Positions 847 through 3,015 of a stretch of DNA of 29,617 nt are shown here, piece after piece; position 1 is the first letter of the stretch; every line of letters starts with the position of its first letter. The notes beneath the pieces are model-generated. The model was not told where the DNA came from. It searched no databases and was given only the letters and a program-made list of their open reading frames with translations. The translations under genes were made by a program, and so were the position numbers. The stretch spans positions 1-29,617 of the forward strand of contig CAYREW010000003.1 of NCBI GenBank assembly GCA_964423535.1. The letters are read 5' to 3'. This stretch comes from an uncultured Candidatus Saccharibacteria bacterium (GTDB lineage: Bacteria; Patescibacteriota; WWE3; JAUXAW01; CAYREW01).

Positions 847-1031
847 CCTCACACTCCGCGCGAGGAAATCCTAAATCCTAAATCCGAAGCTCCAAACTGT
901 TAAATCTAGAGCTGTAAACAAAACCGTTTCAAAATCTAAATACTGCTTGTTTAGTATTTTAAATTTTGTATTTCGAATTTGTTTGGAAATTAGGGTTTCG
1001 TGCTTAGAATTTCCTTGTGCGAAGCACAAGG
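847..1031 (-). repeat. Insert in 23S H63 (185 nt), family A
   Basis: Between conserved H62/H64 flanks; twin terminal hairpins; 147-nt core nearly identical to 2830-2996. Confidence 0.9.
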
Positions 1032-1571
1032 AAGGGCTGCCTTTTCCCAAAGTTACGGCAGTAATTTGCCTAGTTCCTTAACCACCGTTATCTCGCTCGC
1101 CTTAGAATACTCTTCTTGTCTACCTGTGGCGGTTTGCGGTACGGATTTATTATTTCTATAGCTTAGAGGCTTTTCTCGGAGACTTAACGCAGTAGAATCC
1201 CCCGACAAGTCGGAGTCTTCCACAGCTCGCTTTAAACGCAGGTGCGGATTTACCTACACCCACTAACTTGCTGCTTAAACGGCCAACCATATGGCCGCTC
1301 TACTTATCAAGTCCCGTCACCCCATCAGCAAAAATAATAAAGTAACGGAATATTAACCGTTTGCCCATCAGCTACCCCCCACCTGAAGCGGGGACTTGCC
1401 TTAGGACCGACTAACCCTACGTCGACGAACGTTGCGTAGGAAACCTTAGACTTTCGGCGATCCGGATTCTCACCGGATTTACACGTTACTCATGCCGGCA
1501 TTCTCACTTCTTAGCGCTCCAGACAAACTCACATTTGTCCTTCACCGCCCTAAGAACGCTCCCCTACCACA

Positions 1572-1732
1572 CCGCTGCGCAGCAGCGGAAATCCGAAACC
1601 CTAAACCCTAAGAACCAAATAAATACTAAAAACTAAACAACAATTCTTTTTTTTAGAATTTAGTGTTTCTTGTTTTGAGTTTATTTGGAACTTATAATTT
1701 CGAATTTCGTGCTTCCCGATGCTACGCATCGG
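1572..1732 (-). repeat. Intervening sequence in 23S H45 (161 nt)
   Basis: At the classical IVS site near E. coli 1170; ccgctgc-gca-gcagcgg and ccgatgc-tac-gcatcgg flank an AT-rich imperfect hairpin. Confidence 0.9.
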
Positions 1733-2369
1733 TATCCGCGACTTCGGTACAGAGCTTAAGCCCCGTTGAATTTTCGGCGCAGAAATACCAAGTCGACCAG
1801 TGAGCTATTACGCACTCTTTAAAGGATGGCTGCCTCTAGGCCAACCTCCTGGCTGTCTAAGTATTTCTACCTCCTTTTCCACTGAGCTCTGATTTAAGGA
1901 CCTTAGTCGGCGATCTGGGATGTTTCCCTTTTGACACATGGAACTTAGCTCCCATGGCCTGACTAGCACACACACTTTTAGGCATTCGGAGTTTGGTAGG
2001 ATGGAATACCTCTCACGAGGCTTCGCATCCTTCCAGTAGCTCTACCTCCTAAAAGCTTAAGTGTACCGCTAGCCCAAAAACTATTTCGGGGAGAGCCAGC
2101 TATCTCCAGGTTCGATTGGCATATTACCACTACCCTCAGCTCATCCAAAGCTTTTGCCTTAGCTAATGGTTCGGACCTCCCTCCGATTTTCATCAGAGTT
2201 CATCCTGGCCAAGGGTAGATCACCTGGTTTCGGGTCTGTACTCAGCTGTCTGCAGTAAACTGCACCCCCTGTTAAGAGTCGCTTTCGCTACGCCTTCGCC
2301 ACTAAAATGGCTTAGACTAAACAGGCTGAATACAACTCGCCGGCTCATTCTTCAATAGGCACAACATCA

Positions 2370-2505
2370 CCTCGCGCGCAGCGCGAGGAAATCAACTTTT
2401 TCTGCCGCCAGAAGCGGCAATCGTAAGAGACCTAAGATTCTTAAGTATCTTACGAGTTTCGACTTACATCGAAACAAGTGAGATTTCCTTGTGCTACGCA
2501 CAAGG
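2370..2505 (-). repeat. Intervening sequence in 23S H25 (136 nt), family B
   Basis: At the classical IVS site near E. coli 550; twin hairpins; 98-nt core nearly identical to 3122-3219. Confidence 0.9.
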
Positions 2506-2810
2506 CTTTGTCAGCTTGTAAGCAAATGGTTTCAGGTTCTATTTCACTCCCCTCCCGGGGTTCTTTTCACCTTTCCCTCACGGTACTTGTTCACTATCGG
2601 TCGCTAAAAGTATTTAGCCTTGGGCCTAGGTCGGCCCTGTTTCCCACAAGATTTCTCGGGTCCCGTGGTACTCAGGAAACATTGCAAGAAGTTCAGTTAC
2701 CTTTCGAATACGGGGCTGTTGCCCTCTATGGCCTTGTTTTCCAACAAGTTCTTCTAGGTAACTAAATTTGTAACTTCTTTGATATTAAAATCTAGCAATG
2801 TCCTACAACA

Positions 2811-3015
2811 CCTCGCCCTACGGGCGAGGAAATCCTAAATCCTAAATCCCTGCCTGCCGGCAGGCAGGCGAAGCTCCAAACTGTTTAATCTGGAGCTGTA
2901 AACAAACCCGTTTCAAAATATCAACAATAATTGTTTAGTATTTTGAATTTTGTATTTCGAATTTGTTTGGAAATTAGGGTTTCGTGCTTAGAATTTCCTT
3001 GTCCGTAGGACAAGG
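2811..3015 (-). repeat. Insert in 23S H15/H16 region (205 nt), family A plus a 20-bp palindrome
   Basis: Near E. coli 270; same core as 866-1012 plus cctgcctgccggcaggcagg at 2849-2868. Confidence 0.88.

Follow-up and report, generated by a model that had tools for sequence, protein, structure and literature searches.

Six Inserts of One Design in a 23S rRNA Gene

The 29,617-nt window analyzed here is contig C3 (CAYREW010000003.1) of a metagenome-assembled genome of an uncultured Candidatus Saccharibacteria bacterium, an ultra-small member of the phylum Patescibacteria, comprising 750 kb on 81 contigs (41% GC, 86% complete). Its rRNA operon, on the minus strand, consists of a 23S gene (1–3389), two spacer tRNA genes (Ala and Ile), and a 2.6-kb 16S gene. 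The 23S gene holds six inserts, near helices H9/10, H15, H25, H45, H63, and H68. We focus on those in H63 and H15, which have closely similar cores, and on a perfect 20-nt palindrome, P20, nested in the H15 insert. An earlier reading of the sequence by itself (the original prediction) had proposed that one insert was recently copied between these two helices and that the palindrome is a separate mobile unit. Helices were placed by alignment to the 23S gene rrlH of Escherichia coli MG1655 and to those of 19 relatives; the helix numbers are those of the E. coli 23S map. Among the relatives, G001 belongs to the genus of the source genome, G003 to the same order, and G004 to the genus of G003. The features of the 23S gene are as follows.

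1–3389, minus strand: 23S rRNA gene, 3′ end cut by the contig end; Rfam LSU_rRNA_bacteria, 2012 bits, model positions 1–2526; aligned to E. coli rrlH
619–733, minus strand: H68 insert, near the tip of H68 at about E. coli 1860–1880; same design
847–865, minus strand: 3′ end hairpin (hp2) of the H63 insert, with G.U pairs on the rRNA strand only (sequence, fold)
866–1012, minus strand: core of the H63 insert, 147 nt, AT-rich, predicted to form a long imperfect hairpin with a three-way junction on top (fold of −74 kcal/mol)
1013–1031, minus strand: 5′ end hairpin (hp1) of the H63 insert, 8-bp stem and 3-nt loop, RNA CCUUGUGC-uuc-GCACAAGG (sequence, hairpin pattern scan); same type at the same helix in G008
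1572–1732, minus strand: H45 insert, same design, related AT-rich core
2370–2505, minus strand: H25 insert, core about 90% identical to that of the H9/10 insert, with which it forms a second pair
2811–2829, minus strand: 3′ end hairpin (hp2) of the H15 insert, RNA CCUCGCCC-gua-GGGCGAGG; stem identical in G003
2830–2848, minus strand: H15 insert core, 3′ of P20 in RNA sense, an array of the heptamer AAATCCT, identical to 866–884
2849–2868, no strand: P20, perfect 20-nt palindrome, an extra hairpin at the core multiloop in the fold
2869–2996, minus strand: H15 insert core, 5′ of P20 in RNA sense, aligning to 885–1012
2997–3015, minus strand: 5′ end hairpin (hp1) of the H15 insert, RNA CCUUGUCC-uac-GGACAAGG; stem identical in the H15 insert of G003
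3105–3236, minus strand: H9/10 insert, partner of the H25 insert

All six inserts share a common layout. In RNA sense, a GC-rich hairpin is followed by a core, which is a long imperfect AT-rich hairpin, and by a second GC-rich hairpin. The GC hairpins have stems of 7–8 bp and loops of 3 nt, the first being of the type CUUGUGC-nnn-GCACAAG and the second of the type CUCGCGC-nnn-GCGCGAG. Inserts built in the same way stand at H9/10, H15, H25, H45, H63, and H68 in relatives that belong to other genera, families, and orders of the class, and have quite different cores. From the alignment of relatives, we compiled by eye 21 twin-hairpin inserts with their loops. Twenty of these have 3-nt loops, and in every one of the 20 the two loops are complementary to each other; nine different loop pairs occur (e.g., gua/ugc, uuc/gga, and uac/gua). 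As stems and loops are both complementary, the two ends of an insert can also pair together, which makes the whole insert a single rod.

Within the source genome, a hairpin pattern scan found this type of end hairpin confined to the rRNA operon. Such hairpins characterize rRNA inserts; they are conserved throughout the class, and each helix has its own. Among the 19 relatives and E. coli, H63 is empty in G002, G003, and others, and H15 is empty in G002, G004, and others. In G003, where H63 is empty, the H15 insert combines hairpin stems identical to those described here with an unrelated core. In G008, H63 is filled and its first hairpin is the same as ours. We dropped the suspicion that G008 carries its H63 core in the opposite orientation to ours, as both orientations score alike (z of 6.9 vs. 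6.1).

Alignment and Fold of the H63 and H15 Inserts

The first insert (847–1031, 185 nt) lies in the hairpin matching E. coli about 1707–1751, which is the tip of H63 in the rrlH alignment. The second (2811–3015, 205 nt, that is 185 + 20) lies in the hairpin just past E. coli about 270, at the tip of H15 and beside H16, as placed with rrlH and the relatives; H15 is a helix that the E. coli 23S rRNA lacks. With 2849–2868 taken out, MAFFT and a position-by-position comparison give a gapless alignment in which 168 of the 185 positions are identical. Of the 17 differences, seven are in the 19-nt hairpins, four on the left and three on the right, and ten in the 147-nt core (866–1012 compared with 2830–2848 plus 2869–2996), the last figure being the one already counted in the original prediction. 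Both inserts have the same orientation (alignment z of 22, vs. 7.7 when inverted).

Each insert is an inverted repeat of 185 nt, predicted to form on the rRNA strand a long rod topped by a three-way junction. Its ends are 19-nt GC-rich stretches, themselves palindromic, that can either fold on themselves or pair with the opposite end; in a nearest-neighbor model, the rod is favored by 5–8 kcal/mol over the form with two local hairpins. The rRNA strand folds at −74 kcal/mol (z of −7.2) for the H63 insert and −94 kcal/mol (z of −9.7) for the H15 insert, far more stably than shuffled sequences. In the H15 insert, P20 branches off the multiloop as a separate side hairpin, the main stem being the same as without it. 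The opposite strand folds worse (z of −3.8), because the G.U pairs are present on the rRNA strand only. Both elements have two features of an intervening sequence (IVS): they replace a 23S helix tip that is empty in relatives, and their ends pair into a long stem on the rRNA strand. A scan of the window at Rfam gathering thresholds detected rRNA and tRNA only, and no group I or group II intron. The genome encodes an RNase III (rnc, C36:6443–6832; PF14622, 135 bits).

The AT-rich core is a member of a genome-wide family of hairpins, family A, built from mirrored runs of a 7-base word. Outside the rRNA operon, the genome-wide count found arms like those of both cores (AAATCCT runs and their complement) at about 25 loci, most of them intergenic or at the ends of genes. 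The H63 and H15 cores are each other's closest relatives in the genome; the other matches are partial, at most 73 nt long and 70–91% identical. The genome also contains six genes of the 23S-IVS-protein family (PF05635), on contigs C38, C31, C3 (23583–23948), C11 (two genes), and C18. At C11:9062–9945, a word-array hairpin surrounds two PF05635 genes and carries a P20 variant in its right arm. A P20-type copy lies within about 1.1 kb of three of the six IVS-protein genes, an association that is suggestive (rough p = 0.009).

Probable Copying of the Core between Occupied Helices

The differences between the two inserts are unevenly distributed. The paired arms show none in 99 positions and the center 10 in 60 (p = 3.5e-5). 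Six of the ten central differences fall within 11 nt at the apex (936–946), where copy 2 has a new small palindrome; judged from its sequence, this cluster looks like a single template-switch event. The end hairpins differ at 7 of 38 positions, compared with about five mutational events in the 147-nt core (p = 0.003), and their differences include compensatory pairs. The ends appear to follow the site and the core to follow the genome.

We estimate at roughly 0.6 the probability that both inserts are paralogous copies of one noncoding intervening sequence in the single 23S gene of this bacterium, the core of which was copied between the occupied H63 and H15 sites, P20 being added later. The H15 stems are shared with G003, the first H63 hairpin is shared with G008, and the hairpins are more diverged than the cores; the core would therefore have been copied between sites that were already occupied. 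The copying between helices put forward in the original prediction is supported, the cores being mutual closest relatives, and is refined here to an exchange of cores. Its description as recent is relative: the arms are identical, but the center has diverged.

Under this reading, the core would have moved nonreciprocally from one occupied site to the other, likely by gene conversion or template switching anchored in junction sequences common to all inserts (..GCGAGGAAAT.. and ..ATTTCCTTGT..). The older, site-specific end hairpins would have stayed in place, and the paired arms would have been kept identical while loops and apex drifted. P20 would then have entered the H15 copy, at a multiloop where it adds only a side hairpin. 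The inserts may be tolerated since each is probably excised as a whole from the rRNA precursor, or else is not needed; RNase III cuts substrates of this kind, long double-stranded stems.

The H25 and H9/10 inserts form a second pair of this kind within the same gene. Several points weigh against an exchange of cores between occupied sites. In the relatives, cores are not shared between helices, so such exchange is no general habit. G001, of the same genus, has no assembled 23S gene, and the copying can be neither dated nor given a direction. The stems may be so constrained that their identity between G003 and our genome is due to convergence, which would weaken the argument for occupied sites. 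Finally, the uneven differences, with none in the 99 arm positions, require selection on the stems or separate conversion tracts in addition to one copying event.

Other histories could have placed the same core in two helices. The whole unit of hairpin, core, and hairpin might have transposed between helix tips, its ends diverging later under local structural constraint. The GC-rich ends would then be the terminal inverted repeats of an element, and it fits that both copies are exactly 185 nt long in one orientation and that presence varies inside one genus (G003 vs. G004). This is nevertheless unlikely, as the difference per site is about five times higher in the hairpins than in the core, the H15 stems are those of G003 and hp1 of H63 that of G008, the ends thus tracking the site and not the core, and the end-hairpin type is absent outside the rRNA operon of this genome. 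It is still less probable that each site independently captured the same dispersed AT-rich hairpin from a third locus, with no copying from helix to helix. The core family is indeed dispersed over its roughly 25 loci, and at 86% completeness a source copy could be missing from the assembly; however, matches to either copy outside the operon do not exceed 73 nt or 70–91% identity, and the two copies share ends, length, and register. As for a collapsed or misjoined repeat that would show one insert at two places, repeats are hard to assemble and this is a metagenome assembly of 81 contigs. We nevertheless regard such an artifact as highly improbable: the copies differ at 17 positions plus P20, each stands within correct, site-specific rRNA flanks, and independently assembled relatives have inserts of the same design at these two helices.

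P20 Is an Independent 20-nt Unit

P20 (CCTGCCTGCCGGCAGGCAGG, 2849–2868) equals its own reverse complement. As originally described, it is inserted between aaatc and cgaagc with no target duplication, apart from a single C that is ambiguous at the junction. There are seven exact copies in the source genome, compared with 5e-8 expected by chance, and chance is therefore excluded. At least 14 further copies have up to two mismatches or one extra base. With up to two mismatches, P20 occurs in 21 of the 134 genomes of the class sample. Exact copies are present in 86 of the 401 genomes of the phylum sample, in 76 of its 320 genera, with up to 24 copies per genome. The reversed P20 sequence, used as a control, was found in none of the genomes of the two samples. 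Exact P20 also occurs in 35 stretches of IMG/VR viral contigs, including phage contigs of 60–68% GC with portal and tail genes, and often lies there inside short-word arrays, as in the H15 insert. P20 is thus an independent 20-nt unit: exact copies stand in unrelated contexts of the genome, the phylum, and viral contigs, and family hairpins carry it at two positions, in line with the separate mobile unit of the original prediction. A literature search with P20 as a text string returned no paper. P20 differs from a miniature inverted-repeat transposable element in being one palindrome with at most one ambiguous junction base and no common flank among about 35 sites.

In one of these viral contigs (L139, 10590–11330; 67% GC, phage genes nearby), P20 and a near copy lie in GAGAGGT/AACCTCT arrays that flank a 174-aa open reading frame (ORF). 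This layout of word array plus P20 is the same as in the AT-rich insert described here, though in a high-GC phage.

P20 is a habitual guest of short-word array hairpins and not a random arrival. In family-A hairpins, it is inserted at AAATC^CGAAGC on C3, C9, and C18, and at GAAGC^TCCAAA in two elements on C11. A second context is that of tRNA genes. In G001 (L125, G001:C20:81-3154, at 680–1574), two tandem units of 409 nt follow an intact tRNA-His gene. In each unit, a gene for a 92-aa GIY-YIG protein (PF01541, 49.5 bits) is followed by a degenerate 5′ half of the tRNA, by P20, and by a duplicate of the 3′ part; once exactly 20 nt are deleted, ARAGORN recognizes a tRNA-His. The tRNA-Val of G004 has a similar P20 context, and viral contig L170 has the order tRNA, P20, GIY-YIG. 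In the source genome, a partial tRNA-Arg(tcg) copy extending from the D loop to the anticodon arm (C7:21080–21340) is split at GA^GC by a two-mismatch variant of P20, 87 nt upstream of an intact tRNA-Arg gene.

P20 could be imagined as an RNA-level mini-intron of tRNAs. This is unlikely, as a broken copy stands beside an intact one in both resolved cases, the tRNA-His of G001 and our tRNA-Arg; P20 in tRNA genes is more likely to be inserted DNA that disrupts them than a segment removed by splicing. When P20 variants, or all GC hairpins, were deleted from the source genome, no additional tRNA gene was recovered (24 before and after).

P20 also resides in genes for rRNA and proteins. The 5′ end of the G001 16S gene carries a copy (L034, G001:C64:1260-1720; GATGAAC^GCTGGCG). 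On this 1.7-kb contig, a 118-nt stretch around P20 occurs twice in tandem, which may be a real duplication or an assembly problem. In the source genome, an element of 27 codons (81 nt), which has inverted ends of 9 bp (TGTAGTTGC...GCAACTACA) and contains a 21-nt P20 variant, lies in frame in six long ORFs. One copy, at 23062–23142 of the window, is inside a 5′-3′ exonuclease gene (22515–23537, minus strand). Compared with the Pol I structure 6vde, it lengthens the stretch that separates the EADDVIGT and IVSGDRD motifs by about 26 residues. The five others are on C2, C11, and C32.

Perfect GC-rich hairpins with stems of at least 7 bp number 157 in the genome, compared with 12 in a shuffled genome. 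P20 is not the commonest class among them; GCGCnnn-WW-nnnGCGC is, with 56 hairpins (7-bp stem, 2-nt loop).

Likely Gain of P20 in the H15 Copy and Candidate Movers

P20 was likely gained by the H15 copy rather than lost from the H63 copy. The opposite order, in which P20 is ancestral to the core and was lost cleanly from the H63 copy by hairpin bypass during replication, draws on three other family-A hairpins (on C9, C18, and C8) that carry P20 or its 21-nt variant at the very same place, and on genomes of the same order that have modules made of an array plus the 21-nt variant. Perfect palindromes are moreover prone to deletion. Yet the direct repeat flanking P20 is of one base only, and the P20-bearing C9 and C18 hairpins cease to align with the H15 copy past the left arm, whereas the P20-free H63 copy aligns over its full length. 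The presence of P20-type palindromes at a second position in the family argues for repeated gains. On balance, a loss seems quite unlikely.

Two kinds of enzyme could have moved P20. Since P20 recurs at junctions of small GIY-YIG cassettes within tRNA genes, it may spread by nuclease-triggered repair; a junction between such a nuclease gene and a duplicated tRNA, as expected of a homing cassette, was found in two low-GC cases, G001 and L170. Alternatively, the mover may be a hairpin-specific Y1 (HUH) transposase. The genome has three distant Y1_Tnp genes resembling those of REP-associated tyrosine transposases (RAYT), which score 29–37 bits, above the Pfam cut-off, and 41–43 bits against an NCBIfam cut-off of 80. 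A Y1 gene is present in 17 of the 21 P20-positive genomes of the class and in 45 of the 113 P20-negative ones, counts that are uncorrected for kinship. A GTAG-type tetranucleotide stands 5′ of the palindrome in the 81-nt in-frame element and in the C38 and C45 copies, and not at the IVS copy, the C14 and C10 copies, or the tRNA copies. At the 35 viral loci, a gene for an IVS protein adjoins P20 in a single element (two loci), and no Y1-like protein was found beside P20.

Combining these observations, we tentatively propose that P20, which has no coding capacity, is among the smallest mobile DNAs known, copied in trans by a widespread hairpin-specific enzyme, that it prefers hairpin-forming DNA, and that the twin GC hairpins of the inserts act as sockets for cassette-like cores; such a scheme is possible, though less likely than not. 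Copying by a mini GIY-YIG nuclease, via repair, or by a Y1 HUH protein may be what keeps P20 exact throughout the phylum and in the phages of high-GC hosts, and the preferred structured DNA may comprise tRNA D-arms, word-array hairpins, and rRNA inserts. Four observations speak against these movers: no GIY-YIG gene adjoins any P20 copy of the source genome, including that of the IVS; about 35 P20 sites yielded no consensus target; no GC hairpin lies within 1.5 kb of any of the three Y1-like genes; and, among the genomes with P20, one that is 99% complete lacks a Y1 gene.

Comparison with Known Elements

The 23S IVSs of Salmonella, Yersinia, Campylobacter (H25 and H45), Leptospira, and Coxiella are cut by RNase III without ligation in the studied cases (PMC4990558; PMC2801512; account in PMC11270868). 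Like these classical IVSs, the inserts described here are sporadic among relatives and sit at helix tips, with ends that pair into a long stem. Some classical IVSs carry a gene for a 23S-IVS protein, the family with six members in this genome. Unlike classical IVSs, here six inserts occupy one gene, at sites that include H63, H15, H9/10, and H68; their GC hairpin ends are self-complementary, the core is one of a family spread over the genome, in two cases a pair of sites has a core in common, and excision is predicted.

Insertion sequences in rRNA genes of the Candidate Phyla Radiation (CPR) go back to Brown et al. 2015, as cited in PMC11270868. In the parts of the latter paper considered here, inserts are reported in 82% of CPR 23S genes (Tsurumaki et al. 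2024; PMC11270868). Many of them are short (<200 bp), ORF-less, and neither group I nor group II introns, and RNase III-type IVSs were suggested at two sites. The short ORF-less class is left uncharacterized there, and those passages describe no end hairpins, no cores shared between helices, and no nested palindromes. Such inserts are a large class of extra sequence in CPR rRNA genes, and the present locus shows how they are built, with an exchangeable, AT-rich core between two self-complementary GC ends. The presence of one core in two helices has the look of a dated event and would mean that the inserts evolve as sites within a single essential gene exchange sequence. Through P20, nested in one of them, the rRNA inserts are tied to a second layer of selfish DNA, found in tRNA-targeting nuclease cassettes and at in-frame sites of housekeeping genes.

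Repetitive extragenic palindromic (REP) sequences and REPINs are short, GC-rich, repeated palindromes mobilized in trans by RAYT (Y1 HUH) transposases (PMC3116915). The 81-nt in-frame element resembles a REP doublet with GTAG-type ends, and the genome has its three distant RAYT-like genes. Unlike REPs, P20 is a perfect palindrome of low copy number, often inside genes, and no GTAG adjoins it in the H15 insert. The Y1 genes lack flanking palindromes and score under the NCBIfam RAYT cut-off.

The small dispersed repeats (SDR) of heterocyst-forming cyanobacteria, a subject of Elhai and coworkers in 2008, are reportedly mobile repeats of about 21–27 nt, some of them hairpin-forming, which are said to nest in repeats and conserved genes without target duplication. 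Unlike these, P20 has another sequence, belongs to another phylum, and is exact across the whole phylum and into phage contigs. The palindromic elements of Rickettsia and the GC clusters of yeast mitochondria are selfish palindromes whose insertion is tolerated within RNA genes and, in frame, within protein genes, and the GC clusters form GC-rich islands in an AT-rich genome, rRNA genes included. Both are longer than P20 (30–150 bp), and some classes duplicate their target. We know of no link between them and tRNA-targeting GIY-YIG cassettes. Ribosomal RNA intervening sequences and tiny palindromic repeats are kinds already known; the present results add, for P20, its rRNA-insert context and its exact conservation across the phylum, a letter-perfect spread that calls for a specific enzyme.

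Other Features of the Operon

Inserts of this sort upset tRNA detection and rRNA-based classification. The 16S gene (4439–7051 of the window) contains large inserts in its 2.6 kb, and among related small-subunit (SSU) models the archaeal one matches it best (880 bits). It includes a twin-hairpin element (4931–5069), the right hairpin stem of which is that of the H45 insert. A GC-rich hairpin block of about 50 nt directly follows each of the two spacer tRNA genes, Ala and Ile, on the coding strand (3613–3662 and 4051–4100), and the two blocks are 86% alike over 79 nt, the tRNA 3′ ends included. A 2.9-kb record labeled as an E. coli plasmid (NZ_AP027616.1) is a 23S rRNA gene that lacks the E. 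coli 23S start motifs and bears no likeness to that of E. coli, and is probably a contamination of that assembly.

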